A stretch of 64,000 bases of DNA, taken from the NCBI RefSeq assembly GCF_036365525.1, contig NC_090404.1, forward strand, positions 12,924,550 through 12,988,549, in the 5' to 3' direction. This DNA comes from Heterodontus francisci. Its lineage: Eukaryota. Shown piece after piece: positions 3,055 to 43,154 of this stretch; within the stretch, counting starts at the first letter, position 1; each line of letters starts with the position of its first letter. The notes beneath the pieces are model-generated. The model was not told the origin of the DNA. It made no database searches and was given only the letters and a program-made list of their open reading frames with translations. Position numbers and translations under genes: made by a program.

Positions 3055-3106
3055 CGGCTGTGCTAGTCACGACGGCCCCGATCCATCCACAGCACCATAA
3101 GTGACC
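3055..3106 (-). pseudogene. NAR-TCR-type J segment, probable 1-nt frameshift
   Basis: 5' RSS AGTTCTTGT-23 nt-TATTGTG (3145-3107). Coding GGTCACTTATGGTGCTGTGGATGGATCGGGGCCGTCGTGACTAGCACAGCCG, then donor GTAAGA. The DGSG motif and the VVTSTA/phase-1 donor frame are offset by 1 nt. Confidence 0.8.
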
Positions 3107-3466
3107 CACAATAACACCGCTCCCGGTCAGCCCGATACAAGAACTACCGACACCTCAATCTGCCGGCCACACATCACAAGAGTACCGGCGCTACACAATT
3201 ATTCCAGGGGTCTTAGATCAATAAACAATATTTCATGTTTCACAGTCCCTGTCCGTTCAAGCTGTTCATTGTGAGACTCTGAGCTCTTCGTAAAATGGCC
3301 CAGGAACACATGCCGAAGATGGAAGCATCATAGAAATGGAGAAAAATGTCAGAAGGAGGAAATTACAATAAAACTAAACCAAATACAGCGTTACAATTCA
3401 GGACTGGGACCAGGGAATTTATATTTTAATTATACAGAGTTATTTGTTCAGGTCAGTAACACTGGG

Positions 3467-3479: not shown

Positions 3480-3864
3480 CACAGTGTTTGAAGTCAACAC
3501 AAATTGGTACTTGGTGAGGTGTAGGGTATCAGTTAAACGGCGTGGACTACGGTTCCCGGTTCTAGCCTTTACAGCAGGATCCCATTTGGTGTTAGGGAGT
3601 TGTAACTGGCATCAGTCATTCCCAATCGCCATTTACTGACATCAATCGCGGGAAAAACATCTTCATCCGCACGCACTCTGCCTCCATGAAACCAGGAATG
3701 TCAACGGCAATAATCCAATCCCATTATAAACTAGATAGTGGGGCAAAGGGTGCGAGGTGGAACTGTGGGCTTTAACTGCAGATTAATTCCGCTTTATCAT
3801 TTGTTTCTGTGATAATCTGCAGTGAGAGTTTTTCTATCGCGGGAAGCCGAGGCCCATCACTGTG

Positions 3865-4143
3865 TGTTTCTGTGCTCAACTTTACAGTAATAGGTGGCGG
3901 TGTCTTGAACTCTCACATCCCAAATTTCCAGCGAAAATGTCTTTTCTGCCGTAATCGTCCTCATATCAAATCGGTCTCGGCTGGAGATCCGCTCCCGCCG
4001 TGTCCCGGTCTGGGTTTGTCTGAAGAAATATCCATTCTCTTAAGTATAACCATAACCATAGTAAACACAAGTGATGGTGAGAGACTGACACGCCTTCCTG
4101 GTCACCGCTCCCGGGGTCTGTGTCACTGACTGACTGAAAGAGC
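3865..4143 (-). pseudogene. NAR-TCR (VNAR-like) V exon with in-frame stop
   Basis: Translates SFSQSVTQTPGAVTRKACQSLTITCVYYGYGYT*ENGYFFRQTQTGTRRERISSRDRFDMRTITAEKTFSLEIWDVRVQDTATYYCKVEHRN. VNAR hallmarks: QTP start, SLTI.C, CDR2 deleted, ERIS..R, YCK. It also has an extra FR1 Cys. TAA at 4042-4040. 3' RSS CACAGTG(3864-3858)-22-AGAAAAACT(3835-3827). Confidence 0.88.
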
Positions 4144-4291
4144 CTGGAAATTAAACAGAGAGAGTTTGATGGGCCATCAGAGCCGAACCACACAACGAGG
4201 CTCAAACCCCAGACAGTGTCTGTAATTCGGATGGACTCGGGCAGCTTTATATTAAATCCACACAATGTCGGTTTGTTTGATCGGTACTCAC

Positions 4292-4334
4292 GGGGTAAAC
4301 AGACACACAGGGTGAAAACAAGGAGGATTCCCAT
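4292..4334 (-). pseudogene. Leader exon of the NAR-TCR V (MGILLVFTLCVCLP)
   Basis: ATG at 4334, 43-nt hydrophobic exon, phase-1 donor GTGAGT, in frame with the V exon acceptor at 4144. Confidence 0.85.
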
Positions 4335-6268: not shown

Positions 6269-6314
6269 ATGTGCCTACTCAGCATCTGGGTTGTGTGGGG
6301 GGCATTTCTGACAG
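6269..6314 (+). CDS. Leader exon of TCR alpha/delta V (MCLLSIWVVWGAFLT)
   Basis: 46-nt hydrophobic exon with phase-1 donor GTAATT. An in-frame upstream ATG is also present at 6251. Confidence 0.85.
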
Positions 6315-6431
6315 GTAATTGTGGACTAAACACATTTAATCTTTTCTCTCATTTCCCAAACACAGTTTAAATTTGAATTTCAAACAGTCTTCTGTCTGAT
6401 TTTTTCTCCCCTGTATCAACATGCTTTTCAG

Positions 6432-6738
6432 ATCGGATTCATGGAGATTCTGTCACTCAGCAGCTGTCCTCAGATGTTAAGACAGAAGGAGAAGCGGTGA
6501 CTTTAAGCTGTACCTATGATACTACAATGAGCGTCTATACATTGTACTGGTATCGGCAACACCCAGATGTGCAACTGGAGTTTATACTGGGGAAGGATTC
6601 TAATAACAATGAACATAAAGCAAATTTTGCTCACACCCGTTTCTCTGCTGGGCTCCAGACCATGACTAAATTCACCAGTTTAACCATCTTGGGGCTGCAA
6701 CTGATTGACGCTGCCGTGTATTACTGTGCCTTCAGACT
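6432..6738 (+). CDS. TCR alpha/delta-type V segment, intact and unrearranged
   Basis: DRIHG-DSVTQQLSSDVKTEGEAVTLSCTYDTTMSVYTLYWYRQHPDVQLEFIL...RFSAGLQ...SLTILGLQLIDAAVYYCAFRL, with canonical Cys/Trp/YYC and acceptor TTTTCAG. Confidence 0.93.
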
Positions 6739-6777
6739 CACACTGATGGAAAGTAGTCTCACCCCTGTACAAAAACT
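6739..6777 (+). promoter_or_regulatory. 23-RSS of TCR V
   Basis: CACACTG-23 nt-ACAAAAACT. Confidence 0.92.
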
Positions 6778-11299: not shown

Positions 11300-11308
11300 T
11301 CACTTGAC
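11300..11308 (-). CDS. IGHM: IgM TM2 exon (VK-stop)
   Basis: Acceptor TTTTACAG, then GTC AAG TGA. Candidate AATAAA at 10872-10867. Confidence 0.88.
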   Translation of the reverse strand, partial: VK

Positions 11309-11452: not shown

Positions 11453-11580
11453 CTTCACCAGAGTGACTGCAGCACTGTAGAAAATGCTCAGGAAGAACAG
11501 GATGATGAATGTGGAAGCGGTTGTCCAGATGTTGCCGCTCTCTTCCTCATTATCATCAATCCAGATGTGGTCTGAGGAAT
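11453..11580 (-). CDS. IGHM: IgM TM1 exon
   Basis: DSSDHIWIDDNEEESGNIWTTASTFIILFFLSIFYSAAVTLVK, with the conserved antigen-receptor TM motif. TAG acceptor and GTGAG donor. Confidence 0.95.
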
Positions 11581-13816: not shown

Positions 13817-14208
13817 TCATTGACATGAATTGACAGTGTCCAACAGTGCAAGGGAAATGTTCACAAAACTGGGTTTACCGCTCGATTTATTAACTGTTCT
13901 GTTGATGATCTTCAAGGGGATCGCTTCATGTCCCACCACACAGGAGTAAGAAGCGCCGCTGGCCCACTCCTCCGCTGCAATGGATAACAGGCTGTAGATG
14001 AAGTAGGAGCTATTGTCGTTCTCCGCCATCACCTCGGTGTTCTTGTAGTTGCCGGAATTCACCGACTTGTCATTGACGGTCCACTTGACGAATATCTCTC
14101 GGGGGGAGAAACCTCTCACTAAGCAGGTGAGGGAGAGGAACCTCTGAGCAGAGACTTCTTCTGCCGGGGGCAGGAGGACAGACACAGACGGTTCCCGCAG
14201 ATGTTTAA
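13817..14208 (-). CDS. IGHM: IgM Cmu4 plus secretory tail
   Basis: [43 protein letters not shown]...[43 protein letters not shown]. Tail has the NIS sequon and a penultimate Cys. Internal donor G|GTAAA at 13879/13878 for the membrane form. Confidence 0.97.
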
Positions 14209-14706: not shown

Positions 14707-15015
14707 CTTTTTCCTTGTGGATGGACTCTCTGAGAGGAGTCGGCAGATCCTGATGGATCACCACGCAGTAGAACTCAACCTCACTCAGCCAGGATTGTGT
14801 CGAGATGTTTACAGTGCTGATCACGCTGTCGGGATCCTCTCCGGGTTGGACGGCAATCTCTGATTTCAAAGGCTTCTTTTCTTCGGTCCAGGATACGTTG
14901 ACTCCATAAGGAGCATTAGACACGACGCAGGTTAAGGTCACCGTCGCCTCCAGTAAGACCTGTTCTATTGATGGTGGCAGTAGTTTAATTACCGGATCGG
15001 AGCATGAGGGATCAA
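14707..15015 (-). CDS. IGHM: IgM Cmu3
   Basis: [43 protein letters not shown]...[22 protein letters not shown]. 309 nt, phase 1/1, CAG acceptor and GTGAG donor. Confidence 0.97.
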
Positions 15016-18428: not shown

Positions 18429-18740
18429 CCTGAGATCTGGTGAAGTTTCGGCTTTGGGTGACCCCTTTATGAGAGACCTGGCAGGTATAGACCGTGTTGG
18501 TGAACCATTCCCCAGCGGGGACTGTCACTCGGCTGGTCGCCGAGAAGTTCCCGTTCACTTCATAGGCGGGAGAGTTGACGACGCCCGAATCCATGGGTTG
18601 TCCATTCTTCAGCCAAGTCACATTAATTAATTTTGGACGGAAATCGATGATTGAACAGACGGCGGTTGCAAACCTGCTGCTTGAGATTTCTTCACTGGAA
18701 CTCTGGGTGGCGATAATAGTTGGATGATGTACCACATGAT
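18429..18740 (-). CDS. IGHM: IgM Cmu2
   Basis: [47 protein letters not shown]...[20 protein letters not shown]. 312 nt, TAG acceptor and GTAAG donor. Confidence 0.96.
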
Positions 18741-19455: not shown

Positions 19456-19755
19456 CTGGCATTTCCTTGCTCCAGACCGACTCGCCACGTCGAACCTCGC
19501 AGTAGATTTTGCTGCTTCCCACCTCTGACTCGGTGATGGTTAACTGGCTGCTCAGGGTGTAGGTTCCCTTCTTGTTCAGCACTGACGGGTAAGTCTTCAA
19601 TCCAGTGGTGATCGGCTCGTTATTTTTCTTCCAGGAAATGGCCGTGATTTCAGGGGTGTAATCCATTGCCAAACAACCATAGGCCAAGGAGCCGTCGGTG
19701 TTGGGTTGTTCACAGAAGCCGAACAGGCCGTAGAGGGTGGGGGGAGACGGTGTCG
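19456..19755 (-). CDS. IGHM: IgM Cmu1
   Basis: [44 protein letters not shown]...[17 protein letters not shown]. 300 nt, keeps the N-terminal Cys expected for light-chain pairing. Confidence 0.97.
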
Positions 19756-32805: not shown

Positions 32806-32853
32806 CTGCAGTCACCGTCACCATGGTCCCTTGTCCCCAGTAGTCCATGATGT
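32806..32853 (-). CDS. IGHJ: JH segment (IMDYWGQGTMVTVTA)
   Basis: WGxG motif and donor GTAAG. RSS heptamer 32854-32860 (CACAGTG), 23-nt spacer, nonamer ACAATAACC at 32884-32892. Confidence 0.97.
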
Positions 32854-33234
32854 CACAGTGTTACATTCCCTGGGCTGGGTCACACAATAACCGGCTTTGC
32901 ACAGAATAGAGAGAAATCCAACATTAGTTTAAATGTTGCTAAATCAGAGGCAAAGTAAAGCCACGATGGATCTTCATTAAAATATAAGTGTGTTAATGGT
33001 ATTTTTCAATGTTTATAAATGATCCTGACGTTTTATATTGCATCGGGTAATCCATGAACATGCTATCGAAATCAGCAATGGTGAATTAATAATTATCATA
33101 ATTCATCCATATTAAACTGTGCTAGAAGCAAATGCTACTTTATTGCATATACAGCTGGATTGTAAAAGCGAGCAAGGACCCAGATTCAATCAATTAGTGC
33201 AGAGGGACTTTTTGTATTGACAGTAACTGCTGTG

Positions 33235-33247
33235 CCACCCAGTATAA
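33235..33247 (-). other. DH2 segment (TTATACTGGGTGG); V-side 22-RSS, J-side 12-RSS
   Basis: V-side CACGGTA(33248-54)-22-ACAAAAACC(33277-85). J-side CACAGCA(33234-28)-12-ACAAAAAGT(33215-07). Confidence 0.93.
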
Positions 33248-33627: not shown

Positions 33628-33644
33628 ATACCCACTGTAGTACC
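33628..33644 (-). other. DH1 segment (GGTACTACAGTGGGTAT); 12-RSS on both sides
   Basis: V-side CACTGTG(33645-51)-12-ACAAATACT(33664-72). J-side CACAGTG(33627-21)-12-TCAAATACT(33608-00). Confidence 0.93.
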
Positions 33645-34019
33645 CACTGTGACACGAACCCGCACAAATACTCTTTCATTGCCATTGTCAGAATAAAATC
33701 GCTCAGTCAACAGAAGGTTTTGCAGATTTTGATTATCCATCTATGAGTTTTTCCTCAGAATGGCGGATTTGGACTAAAATTGGCCCCCATTGATAGAATA
33801 TCAACGATTTCATTGACTCCCTTTTCGCCAATGCTGGGCACTGCAAGCAGTACCCGCGGGTCCTTATCCTTATTAGCTTGGTTAATGTGAATTTTATTTT
33901 AACCTATTTATTGCTGTATCAAATACATCCTTCTAGTCTAAGTTAAAAACATCTCAATGTATATCATACCATTACTGACCGTTAGCTTTGGACGGGATGT
34001 GCTGCAAATTTTATCACTC

Positions 34020-34058
34020 TGTTTCTGTACGAGCCCAGGATTTGCTTGGGTCGCAGTG
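34020..34058 (-). promoter_or_regulatory. 23-RSS of VH
   Basis: CACTGCG-23 nt-ACAGAAACA. Confidence 0.9.
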
Positions 34059-34361
34059 GGTCTCTTGCACAGTAATACATGGCGGTGTCTTCGGATCTCA
34101 GACTTTTGATCTCAATATAGGTTGTGGAAGAGGCTCTGGAAGGAATGATTCGACCTTGGACTCCAGGCGCGTAATAGATGGTATCCGATGGTTTTCTGTA
34201 AGCAAGGAGCCACTCCAGCCCCTTCCCTGGAGCTTGCTTAACCCAGTGCACATAGTAGCTGTCCAGACTGAATCCGCTCACGGAGCAGGAAAGCTTGTGA
34301 GATTCTCCGGGCTTTTTCGTCACCGAAGCTGACTGGGTCAGCACAATATCGGACCGGACAT
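34059..34361 (-). CDS. IGHV: VH exon, intact, IgW-like sequence
   Basis: YVRS-DIVLTQSASVTKKPGESHKLSCSVSGFSLDSYYVHWVKQAPGKGLEWLLAYRKPSDTIYYAPGVQGRIIPSRASSTTYIEIKSLRSEDTAMYYCARD. CAG acceptor at 34364-34362. Confidence 0.96.
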
Positions 34362-34483
34362 CTGTCAGTTGAATGAAACAAATATCATCACATTAGATAA
34401 CATTCAAATCAATAAATAGAAATAAAAACACAATATCTGAAGCAGACTTCTGTTGTGTGACTAAACCGGTCAGGAATACTCAC

Positions 34484-34529
34484 AGGTGAAGCAAGCCAGC
34501 AGCACACAGAGGCACGGGGCAAGTCCCAT
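34484..34529 (-). CDS. IGHV: VH leader exon (MGLAPCLCVLLACFT)
   Basis: ATG at 34529, 46 nt, phase-1 donor GTGAGT, in frame with the V exon. Confidence 0.93.
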
Positions 34530-36529
34530 AGTTCAGTCTCTCGGTATAACTGACTCAGGAACGTGTCTCGATGCCACAGCAACGCCTCCTGATTGTGAAG
34601 TTGGAGCTGAACCGTCCCGCTATTTGTACTGGCTGGAGCCCGATACGAAAAAGCCAACTGGGAACTGGGAGGCCCTCACGCCACCGTCCTCCCCACCCAC
34701 ACACCACCCCGCCCCCAGCAACAGGCTGACTCCTCCTCTGTTTTCCTGTATGAGTCCAGCGATGTAAATAATAATTAACCATTAATAATACGTGGTCTGT
34801 GTCTATTCCATAAAATTACCTTGGCTTTGCCGATTTATAGTTGGGGACTATATACAGTTTCGCCAAAATATATTTCGTTTAAAATTGAATCTCCATGTAC
34901 CTTCCCAATAAACACCTCTCCTTAGCTCGGGGTCCAATTCCTCCCAGGTGGACGGAACATATCCCATGGAATCATTTCAAAGAAAAGCAGGGGAAATCTC
35001 CCCTGTGTCCTGGGGCCGATAATAATCCCTCTACCAACATCAGCGAAACGGATTATTTGATCATTTATCACAATGCAGTTTGATGATCTTTCTTTGCGCA
35101 AATTGGCGACCGTGTTTCCCTACACCACCGCAGTGATTATGCTTCCGATATTTTCATTCACTGTAAAGCTCTTTGAGATATCCTGACGCTCTGCAAGGTG
35201 CGATATAAATGCAAGTCTTTCTTTTATTCCCCCCCCCCCCCCCCCCCCCATTCGCAATTGCTTTTTTTGGGATGCAAGGTAAAAGGACACTGGAGTTGAT
35301 GATCTTTGATCTGACTCTACAGGAGCGAAAGTGAACATTTGGGAATAACATCATTTATTGTTAGATATCATCGATCACAAGTGTGCATCTCCGCTTTAAT
35401 GCAATGTTCCCTGAACCAATCGGTCAATGGATCTCAGCTCAACTGTGTAAAGATTGTTACTTTATTTCACACTAAACAATGGTAAATTGTAAAAGTTGAG
35501 ATTTACACCAATCTGTGTAGGTGTGATGCGACAGCGCAGTTCGCCCGAAACTGCTTGAGAATTAAATCTCGCTGCCTGCCTTTCTAATCGTGGTTATGTT
35601 ACTGTCCTATAGACCATGGGAATATCCGCAACACTGCAGATTAAACAGTATCATTCAGTATAAACCGACTGATGGAGAACTTTCTGGTAGATTTGGGAAA
35701 TCATAAGTTTCAAGTTACATTTTTTTTAATTGCACAAGAAAAGGGAAATCATTAGATCAAATACTTTATTTGATTTTCACTATCGTGTGGTTTGATTCAT
35801 TAACCCAGCTGTGGCTAGCTGTTCTCAAGCTGTACCAGAGCATGTTTCATTTTAAAATATAAAGGCTGCCAGTTAATAATTATACCAAAATCTTAGTGAG
35901 TAACTGGACTTCTCAGTCATGCCCCAGGCTTGTTCTGTAACTCAGCAGAATGCAGGAAATGGAGTCAAGCATAAAATTATAAATGGAACCAAAAGCTAGT
36001 ATTATATCACTTATTGAGATCTTTATATCTGTCCCTCTCTGTGTCAGTCTGATGCCAGCATAGCATACCTCAGGCAGGACTGTGAAGAAGTACTGCATTA
36101 TTCAGAGTAAATTTGGCTTTCATTAATTCATATTTCAAACGCTTTTCAAAGTTCCAATCGTATTTTATTTTGATCTGCACGTGACATACAGGAACATAAT
36201 TTGCTTTAATGTCATACCATAAGAAGTATATTATCGATTGGCCGTGCCTAATGATTCATTAGTTGAGCAGGTAAATGCTAGCTTGTTCCCACACACACTC
36301 TCTGTCCATATCTCCCCCACTGAGCTTGTGATCAAAATCCATCAATTCAACAGCAGGGAGGAGCGAGAACTCACATTGTAATTTACAGGAAACATCTGTG
36401 GGTTCTGTGCAGCAAATTCTTTGAGCTGTTTCCAACTCATTGATCAGAGCTAGAAAGTCAACTGGAGCACCACCTATTATGAATGCCACCTTTTTATAGA
36501 CAAATCTGCCCAGCAACAATATACTCATG

Positions 36530-40363: not shown

Positions 40364-42375
40364 TTCTTTTGGGCCTCCTTATCTCGAGAGACAATGGATA
40401 CGCGCCTGGAGGTGGTCAGTGGTTTGTGAAGCAGCGCCTGGAGTGGCTATAAAGGCCAATTCTGGAGTGACAGGCTCTTCCACAGGTGCTGCAGAGAAAT
40501 TTGTTTGTTGGGGCTGTTGCACAGTTGGCTATCCCCTTGCGCCTCTGTCTTTTTTCCTGCCAACTACTAAGTCTCTTCGACTCGCCACAATTTAGCCCTG
40601 TCTTTATGGCTGCCCGCCAGCTCTGGCGAATGCTGGCAACTGACTCCCACGACTTGTGATCAATGTCACACGATTTCATGTCGCGTTTGCAGACGTCTTT
40701 ATAACGGAGACATGGACGGCCGGTGGGTCTGATACCAGTGGCGAGCTCGCTGTACAATGTGTCTTTGGGGATCCTGCCATCTTCCATGCGGCTCACATGG
40801 CCAAGCCATCTCAAGCGCCGCTGACTCAGTAGTGTGTATAAGCTGGGGATGTTGGCCGCTTCAAGGACTTCTGTGTTGGAGATATAGTCCTGCCACCTGA
40901 TGCCAAGTATTCTCCGAAGGCAGCGAAGATGGAATGAATTGAGACGTCGCTCTTGGCTGGCATACGTTGTCCAGGCCTCGCTGCCGTAGAGCAAGGTACT
41001 GAGGACACAGGCCTGATACACTCGGACTTTTGTGTTCCGTGTCAGTGCGCCATTTTCCCACACTCTCTTGGCCAGTCTGAACATAGCAGTGGAAGCCTTA
41101 CCCATGCGCTTGTTGATTTCTGCATCTAGAGACAGGTTACTGGTGATAGTTGAGCCTAGGTAGGTGAACTCTTGAACCACTTCCAGAGCGTGGTCGCCAA
41201 TATTGATGGATGGAGCATTTCTGACATCCTGCCCCATGATGTTCGTTTTCTTGAGGCTGATGGTTAGGCCAAATTCATTGCAGGCAGACGCAAACCTGTC
41301 GATGAGACTCTGCAGGCATTCTTCAGTGTGAGATGTTAAAGCAGCATCGTCAGCAAAGAGGAGTTCTCTGATGAGGACTTTCCGTACTTTGGACTTCGCT
41401 CTTAGACGGGCAAGGTTGAACAACCTGCCCCCTGATCTTGTGTGGAGGAAAATTCCTTCTTCAGAGGATTTGAACGCATGTGAAAGCAGCAGGGAGAAGA
41501 AAATCCCAAAAAGTGTGGGTGCGAGAACACAGCCCTGTTTCACACCACTCAGGATAGGAAAGGGCTCTGATGAGGAGCCACCATGTTGAATTGTGCCTTT
41601 CATATTGTCATGGAATGAGGTGATGATACTTAGTAGCTTTGGTGGACATCCGATCTTTTCTAGTAGTCTGAAGAGACCACGTCTGCTGACGAGGTCAAAG
41701 GCTTTGGTGAGATCAATGAAAGCAATGTAGAGGGGCATCTGTTGTTCACGGCATTTCTCCTGTATCTGACGAAGGGAGAACAGCATGTCAATAGTCGATC
41801 TCTCTGCACGAAAGCCACACTGTGCCTCAGGGTAGACGCGCTCGGCCAGCTTCTGGAGCCTGTTCAGAGCGACTCGAGCAAAGACTTTCCCCACTATGCT
41901 GAGCAGGGAGATTCCACGGTAGTTGTTGCAGTCACCGCGGTCACCTTTGTTTTTATAGAGGGTGATGATGTTGGCATCGCGCATGTCCTGGGGTACTGCT
42001 CCCTCGTCCCAGCACAGGCATAGCAGTTCATGTAGTGCTGAGAGTATAGCAGGCTTGGCACTCTTGATTATTTCAGGGGTAATGCTGTCCTTCCCAGGGG
42101 CTTTTCCGCTGGCTAGGGAATCAATGGCATCACTGAGTTCCGATTTGGTTGGCTGTATGTCCAGCTCATCCATGACTGGTAGAGGCTGGGCTGCATTGAG
42201 GGCAGTCTCAGTGACAGCATTCTCCCTGGAGTACAGTTCTAGGTAGTGCTCAACCCAGCGGTCCATCTGTTTGCGTTGGTCAGTGATTATGTCCCCCGAT
42301 TTAGATTTGAGGGGGGTGATCTTCTTGATGGTTGGCCCAAGAGCTCTCTTCATGCCATCATACATTCCTCTGATG
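40364..42375 (-). mobile_element. Young 5'-truncated RTE-clade LINE with an uninterrupted 649-aa ORF
   Basis: ORF 40416-42365: NYRGISLL, FIDLTKAFD, GVKQGCVLAP, LLFADD, RRLRWLGHV, and C-terminal CxxC..H...C. Short 3' UTR. Confidence 0.95.
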
Positions 42376-43154
42376 GATTTGTATAAATGGGTGGTTGATG
42401 GTCGGCATGGGCTCGTTGGGCCGAAGGGCCTGTTTCGGTGCTGTATCTCTCTATGACTCTATGATTTGATGCAGAAGTAACTGAGGCTGTGATATAAACA
42501 GAATCATGATTTAGTGCTTTATAACTGATAGAGGGCCCAGTTGATCTCATGAACCAGCACACTCTCCTCGTCACAGCTTTACTGATGAGGTGGACAATTA
42601 AAACTCCTATCTCTCCCACACGCTGTCCTTGTCAGCATTCCGCCCGTCAACCAAGATCAAAAAAATACATGAACAGGAATTGAGCCACTTTGCACTTTTG
42701 CTGATGTTTCTGTCCGCAAATCTGCAAATATTACATTTTAAATTCTGTGTGACATCCTGGCGAAGATAATGATCTGGAACACGAGTGAAAGCTGTTTCTT
42801 CATACATTAATTCTATCATTATCAGAAACAGTAACTGACATTGACATTTTCACGATTGGAGCAATGGCAAGCATTGGTCACCAGGGGGCAGTGAAATTCT
42901 GAATGTTTACATGACGAGAAACAGACACTGCCTCAATTATTACTGCATTACAGCATGCTTCTGTTCATATTACAGTAGGCCCTGTCTCAGTCATTTCTGC
43001 ACTAGACCATGTCTCTGCTTATACTACAGTAGGTCCTGTCTCAGTGGCTACTGCACTAGGACAGGTCTCCTTTTGTAACGCGAGGCCCTGTCTCTGGTAT
43101 TACTGCAGGAGAACATGTCTCTGTTCATAATACACTGGGCCCTGTCTCAGTTAT

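Follow-up and report, generated by a model that had tools for sequence, protein, structure and literature searches.

Background

Why does an IgM gene cluster of the horn shark, Heterodontus francisci, carry a leader and a VH exon that resemble those of IgW? The question was raised by a stretch of 64,000 nucleotides (hereafter the window), which corresponds to positions 12924550-12988549 of NC_090404.1 (C34) in a 6.0-Gb genome. From its letters alone, the original prediction described an IgW-type leader and VH on IgM D, J and C segments, and attributed the combination to germline V exchange between IgW and IgM clusters or to a retained ancestral V lineage. It also cautioned that the cluster might be a divergent-VH cluster already reported in horn shark, with its location as the new point.

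The caution was right. By-eye comparison with the printed lambda-1113 gene (Hinds-Frey et al. 1993, PMC2191167) showed that the V of the window is identical in 287 of 288 letters, the remaining letter being illegible in the scan. The D1, D2 and J segments agree in the same way, and the RSS layout, the inverted D1-D2 spacer, the CDR2 insertion and the FR3 deletion are common to both. The window cluster is thus lambda-1113 (1113 below), an already known horn shark IgM gene published in 1993. In the available portion of that paper, lambda-1113 represents a second VH family, presumed to be monotypic, with a V approximately 61% identical to the main VH family, a D1-D2 spacer in inverted orientation, 3 nt inserted in CDR2 and 6 nt deleted from FR3; three cDNAs have a C1 matching the cluster. 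Affinity to IgW is without mention in that portion, and the available portions of PMC2435157, PMC5192425 and bioRxiv 2022.06.22.497154 added nothing on lambda-1113. Searches of PDB, of longer proteins and of Atlas with the 1113 V returned generic VH matches only. A divergent VH family of nurse shark, reportedly described by Rumfelt et al. in 2004 as orthologous to the horn shark monotypic family, is likely the same V lineage as 1113. Neither a placement of lambda-1113 with IgW nor a second family member was found in print in a limited body of literature, which does not establish absence; the IgW affinity of the 1113 V is supported here but may already be in print.

Layout of the lambda-1113 cluster

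The leader exon, the open V exon and every motif quoted in the original prediction were present on the minus strand. The features of the cluster are as follows, with positions given in the window:

34530..34830, minus: promoter and 5' UTR, resembling only the related clusters L002 and L006
34484..34529, minus: leader exon, IgW-type by nucleotide identity; splice seen in contig
34362..34483, minus: leader intron, 122 nt, GT-AG; splice seen in contig
34059..34361, minus: VH exon, open; the lambda-1113 V (second VH family) by Fig. 5 of PMC2191167 and by trees
34020..34058, minus: V RSS, 23-nt spacer, 2+2 mismatches to consensus
33673..34019, minus: V-D1 spacer; weak similarity to main IgM clusters over the first ~200 nt, none to any sequence tested over the remainder
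33628..33644, minus: D1, flanked by 12/12 RSS; letters equal to the 1113 D1 in Fig. 1 of PMC2191167
33248..33627, plus: D1-D2 spacer including its two RSS, in the orientation opposite to that of other IgM clusters (alignment to 18 clusters)
33235..33247, minus: D2, flanked by 22/12 RSS
32854-32892: J RSS, 23 spacer
32806..32853, minus: JH, IgM-type; matches the printed 1113 J and is unlike IgW J
19456..19755, minus: Cmu1
18429..18740, minus: Cmu2
14707..15015, minus: Cmu3
13817..14208, minus: Cmu4 with secretory tail
11453..11580, minus: TM1 exon
11300-11308, minus: TM2

The RSS layout is V23-12D1 12-22D2 12-23J, in which the 5' spacer of D2 measures 22; under the 12/23 rule D1 would therefore be obligatory and D2 optional, giving V-D1-D2-J or V-D1-J. 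The inversion of the D1-D2 spacer reported for lambda-1113 is also present in the window cluster: the spacer was found in the opposite orientation at 74-78% nucleotide identity in all 14 clusters that gave a match (18 tested), and matched none of the three IgW clusters or the VDD-joined L006 among those tested. The leader-V splice of 1113 was seen in one contig of sequencing run X5, with 90 letters on the shorter side. V-J and J-C1 joints at 85% likeness were not counted as specific to 1113 because of their short sides, and runs X7 and X14 were set aside for short tiles and foreign flanks. Splicing of the 1113 product to Cmu was documented by the 1993 cDNAs (PMC2191167).

Repeats also occur in the region. 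An open 680-aa reverse-transcriptase-like frame of LINE type lies upstream of the V at 40419-42458 on the minus strand, and shorter LINE-type pieces lie inside the 13-kb J-C intron. Matches of this intron to IgW regions were dismissed as repeats, being scattered and in both orientations.

The IgM backbone

The predicted IgM backbone was borne out by the spacers, the RSS layout, the J and the C exons. For the Ds, the assignment held for their spacers and RSS layout and not for the D2 core, which is common to IgW D segments; the IgM diagnosis therefore rests on spacers, RSS layout, J and C exons. The IgW Ds have the same core as the IgM D2, yet they are flanked by 12/23 RSS and by different spacers. 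The cluster has four C exons, a secretory tail, TM exons, and J and spacers of IgM, and the features of IgW genes (IgW J, 12/23 Ds and IgW C exons) are absent from it. We take the isotype name IgM from the layout in four domains and from general knowledge of the isotype.

The C exons of the window are 85-98% identical in nucleotides to those of 22 other IgM-type clusters, and 19-44% identical in amino acids to the C exons of three IgW clusters. Genome searches scored the best 150 of 967, 298, 583 and 1301 candidates, and the counts they give are lower bounds. The C1 search yielded at least 69 matches, at least 53 of them near full length at 76-100% amino acid identity, and all near-full-length matches listed are on C34 at 3.6-13.9 Mb.

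Somatic switching between IgW and IgM is known in nurse shark (PMC4279169), which lends some plausibility to the idea that the cluster is a captured switch product or, failing that, an assembly chimera. Against both, the cluster is unrearranged and matches the 1993 genomic clone and cDNAs (PMC2191167), and the 1113 V stands on no IgW cluster among the assembly matches listed. A chimera of the assembly is refuted by the independent clone, and the probability of this explanation as a whole is negligible.

Relatives in the same genome

Among the matches listed, the 1113-type V clade occurs on three IgM clusters (1113, L002 and L006) and on one IgW cluster (L003), all on C34. The cluster L002 (C34:13753100-13763099, ~13.76 Mb) is a second member of the 1113 VH family and lies 0.8 Mb away. 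Its V is 80% identical to that of 1113 in amino acids, with frameworks at 83-88% in nucleotides. It has germline-joined V-D1 and D2-J, a D1-D2 spacer in normal orientation and IgM C exons. A 583-nt contig (97% likeness) runs from the leader through V, junction and J to C1 with zero mismatches to L002 in the three listed pieces. All nine listed V-J rows with known inserted letters are in frame (eight distinct), a further joint whose letters are unknown being left out of the count. The read evidence comes from four runs of one sample whose RNA status is presumed; the GT-AG joints fit spliced RNA, and L002 appears to be an expressed second member. Thus 1113 is not the only member of its VH family: monotypic in the 1993 paper (PMC2191167), the family has at least two members in this assembly.

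L006 (10.04 Mb, in the region C34:10.02-10.04 Mb) is a VDD-joined pseudogene on IgM C exons: its V contains a stop, and its C1 and C4 are frameshifted. It has a promoter of the 1113 type, a leader of its own and a V that is sister to the IgW V W26. The C-exon tree, in which 21 of 23 clusters were kept, was star-like, and tests gave p 0.135 for a clade of 1113 and L002 and p 0.038 for a clade of 1113, L002 and L006. In the tree of D1-D2 spacers, 1113 and L002 fell together, outside 13 main clusters (90/85). A recent hop of the V between IgM backbones was dropped in view of the star-like C tree and this pairing.

Three IgW clusters, L003 to L005, lie at C34:1.44, 1.85 and 2.01 Mb. Their label derives from the grouping of L003 with W26 (Swiss-Prot P83907, a horn shark IgW V) and from the J type of W26 shared by L003 and L004. 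W26 belongs to the same V clade as 1113, with a short FR3 and a similar CDR2-FR3; it differs in its IgW-type J and matches L003, which has IgW C exons and 12/23 Ds, whereas 1113 has the IgM backbone. Compared with L004 and L005, L003 is 94-100% identical in leader, intron, FR1 and FR2, against 55% in CDR1 and 44% in CDR2-FR3a; by this comparison the L003 V is a mosaic. The three clusters have near-identical promoters, leaders and frameworks and two very different CDR2-FR3 types. In L005, J, C1 and C2 are seemingly missing. No published description of L002, the L006 pseudogene or the IgW mosaic was found in a limited literature search.

Affinity of the V to IgW

The 1113 V is 61-63% identical in amino acids to three IgW-cluster Vs and 52-55% identical to three main-family IgM Vs. 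In the main V tree (64 rows, 97 columns), the 1113, L002 and catshark Vs formed a clade (99/89), to which L006, the IgW L003 and W26 (99/94) were sister. The six-row clade had support of 100/92 in this tree, 96/92 under a mixture model (45 rows), 100/96 with eight more IgW-like rows added (53 rows) and 100/99 on the CDR2-FR3 half alone. Nineteen rows were dropped from the mixture-model tree and 19 from the 53-row tree as long branches or near-copies, and five of the added 'IgW' rows (P0286, P0292, P0307, P0371 and P0383) were labelled by V or leader likeness or by automatic name. On the FR1-FR2 half the clade was lost, and 1113 had no starred link to IgW. Nesting of the 1113 clade inside all IgW V was weakly supported in the 64-row tree (85/83) and without resolution in the 45- and 53-row trees. 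By AU tests, a single clade of all IgM-linked V was rejected (p 0.005), as was one clade of the main and second families (p 0.025); an IgW-only clade without 1113 was not rejected (p 0.16).

The phylogeny that the original prediction had proposed thus placed the 1113 V with the W26-type IgW V, and neither in the main IgM clade nor in the TAILV-like group. The motifs it had quoted as IgW-type fared unevenly: the leader and CDR2-FR3 carry IgW signal, and the FR1 motif is also found in gecko and sturgeon VH, so that it is not IgW-specific and cannot polarise the tree. The leader of 1113 type is also the one found on IgW-like proteins from skate, rays, sawfish and bamboo shark. The catshark V, known as a protein only, is 84% identical to the 1113 V in amino acids and branches before the split of 1113 and L002; the V lineage would therefore predate the divergence of those shark orders.

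The 1993 paper explained the divergence differently, by drift of a main-family IgM V once the D1-D2 inversion had freed it from gene correction (PMC2191167). The inversion is real. L002, however, has the same V type with an uninverted spacer, so the family is not monotypic and the V diverged without inversion, which largely refutes the model. The AU rejection of a joint clade of the two families and the early branching of the catshark V also stand against it, and we regard it as very unlikely.

A different proposal reverses the flow: the V family would be an old one borne on IgM, and gene conversion from an IgM donor resembling L006 would have supplied CDR1-FR3 to one IgW cluster, of the L003/W26 type. 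Three of the four listed clade members in the genome are on IgM, the IgM-linked L006 is sister to W26 and L003, and the mosaic L003 combines frameworks like those of L004 and L005 with a divergent CDR1 and CDR2-FR3a. The mosaic fits recent framework homogenisation among IgW clusters equally well, however, and the IgW-like leader and FR1 of 1113 (72%) are left without explanation. We consider this proposal unlikely, if worth serious attention.

Segment-by-segment comparison

Alignment of the V-D1 spacer and the 5' flank, which had been expected to map a crossover, revealed no sharp junction: the leader and FR1 are only ~72% identical to IgW, and the promoter is of neither isotype. The leader is 72% identical in nucleotides to IgW against 54-63% to eight main IgM clusters (the three IgW clusters share one identical leader, which is taken as a single observation), and FR1 71-72% against 56-63%. 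CDR1 is 79-83% identical to the main IgM cluster L008 against 48-70% to IgW, whereas neither FR2 nor late FR3 separates the isotypes. In CDR2-FR3a, L006 (72%) and L003 (65%) stand apart from the other IgW and main IgM Vs, which reach 49-51%. The leader intron was IgW-like in pairwise alignment (z 5 against z 0-1), a signal that disappeared in multiple alignment (44-45% against 42-43%). The V RSS resembles that of main IgM clusters (z at least 4 in seven of eight), and the next 155 nt had z 4-5 in five of the eight and z -2 to IgW, one unjoined IgW spacer being comparable. These values suggest that the switch from IgW-like to IgM-like sequence can be bracketed between the first half of FR3 and the V RSS.

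The last 120 nt of the promoter are 78% identical to L002 (z 15) and 70% to L006 (z 13), with z 0 to IgW and z -1 to 3 to the eight main IgM clusters. A promoter of its own type is one of the observations that agree with a retained ancestral lineage, according to which the V descends from a cluster older than the IgM/IgW split, the main IgM family is derived and no exchange is needed. The FR1 motif in sturgeon, teleost and gecko VH and the deep nodes without resolution in the 45- and 53-row trees agree with it too. The clade, however, rests on CDR2-FR3 characters seen only in elasmobranch rows, and none of 17-19 bony-vertebrate rows fell inside it. Moreover, the IgM-linked L006 is nearer to the IgW W26 than to 1113, so that this explanation would still require one exchange or more, or else another, hidden duplication. 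A retained lineage is in our judgement improbable.

Location and neighbouring receptor segments

The location did not prove to be the new point. The search for TCR alpha/delta V segments gave at least 94 matches on C34, at least 92 of them at 3.65-13.9 Mb amid the IgM clusters, and IgW and IgM clusters are linked on this sequence; mixing of this kind is already published. In four further elasmobranchs, Flajnik et al. 2025 (PMC12227049) described loci linked and interspersed in the same manner, with IgM, IgW and TCR alpha/delta linked in an antigen receptor complex and TCR V between IgH clusters as here, and proposed that linkage favours chimeric genes (NARTCR, TAILV). A germline V lineage common to IgM and IgW clusters is not described, and horn shark not mentioned, in the available portion of that paper.

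Several neighbouring segments were observed. An intact TCR alpha/delta V with leader and 23 RSS lies at 6269-6777 of the window on the plus strand, ~4.5 kb from the IgM TM exons. On the minus strand, positions 3860-4320 are occupied by a NAR-like V that is interrupted by an in-frame stop and has a 22 RSS, with a J-like piece near 3056-3110. The best single-domain PDB matches of this V are shark VNARs, and it is presumably a NARTCR-type pseudogene. An array of lone Ig-like Vs with 23 RSS and no D (L051-L057) was found at C34:3.36-3.43 Mb, where a divergent long-branch V at 3.377 Mb groups with nothing. We take these lone Vs to be TAILV-like; they form a separate clade, and 1113 is a complete cluster. 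At C34:13.87-13.90 Mb (L070, L081 and L091-L092), an IgM J-C unit has TCR V segments upstream, with no VH within ~23 kb upstream of J and no D detected. At several further Cmu sets, the 20 kb covered likewise contained no VH.

Discussion

The most probable explanation, to which we assign a probability of roughly 0.6, is that the 1113 V came to stand on IgM when linked IgW and IgM clusters recombined in the germline long ago. Ectopic recombination between such clusters would have put the V lineage on both isotypes before the horn shark/catshark split. Later duplication would have given rise to 1113 and L002, after which the D1-D2 inversion would have struck 1113 only. The C exons have probably been homogenised since with those of other IgM clusters, as the star-like C tree suggests, and no sharp junction would therefore survive.

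The direction from IgW to IgM is the weakest step of this explanation, with about even odds. It is preferred because the leader type occurs on IgW-like proteins across sharks and rays. On the other side, a single move from IgM to IgW would be as cheap or cheaper, and reverse flow and a retained lineage keep some standing because most listed clade members here are on IgM. The broader statement that IgM and IgW clusters exchanged germline V segments on more than one occasion, in a lineage older than the horn shark/catshark split, is tentative, and we place it a little below even odds.

A somatic counterpart, which speaks in favour of the preferred explanation, exists in nurse shark, where switching between IgW V and IgM C has been reviewed (PMC4279169, citing Zhu 2012 and Zhang 2013). 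As in 1113, an IgW-type V is expressed with Cmu; that process is AID-linked, somatic and between rearranged clusters, whereas the arrangement in 1113 is germline and fixed.

The gene itself is a 30-year-old result. In the light of the genome around it, two earlier statements need correction, namely that the family is monotypic and that its divergence came from the inversion. The finding is relevant to comparative immunology and is not a new kind of system. The histories of V and C are decoupled across isotypes. If the proposed exchange is true, it would parallel somatic isotype switching in a form that is fixed and inherited, and would mark a step on the way to the V pool shared in the translocon. 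If it is true across sharks, germline exchange of V between IgM and IgW would make it testable how the isotype-bound Vs of clusters turned into the common pool seen in bony vertebrates.
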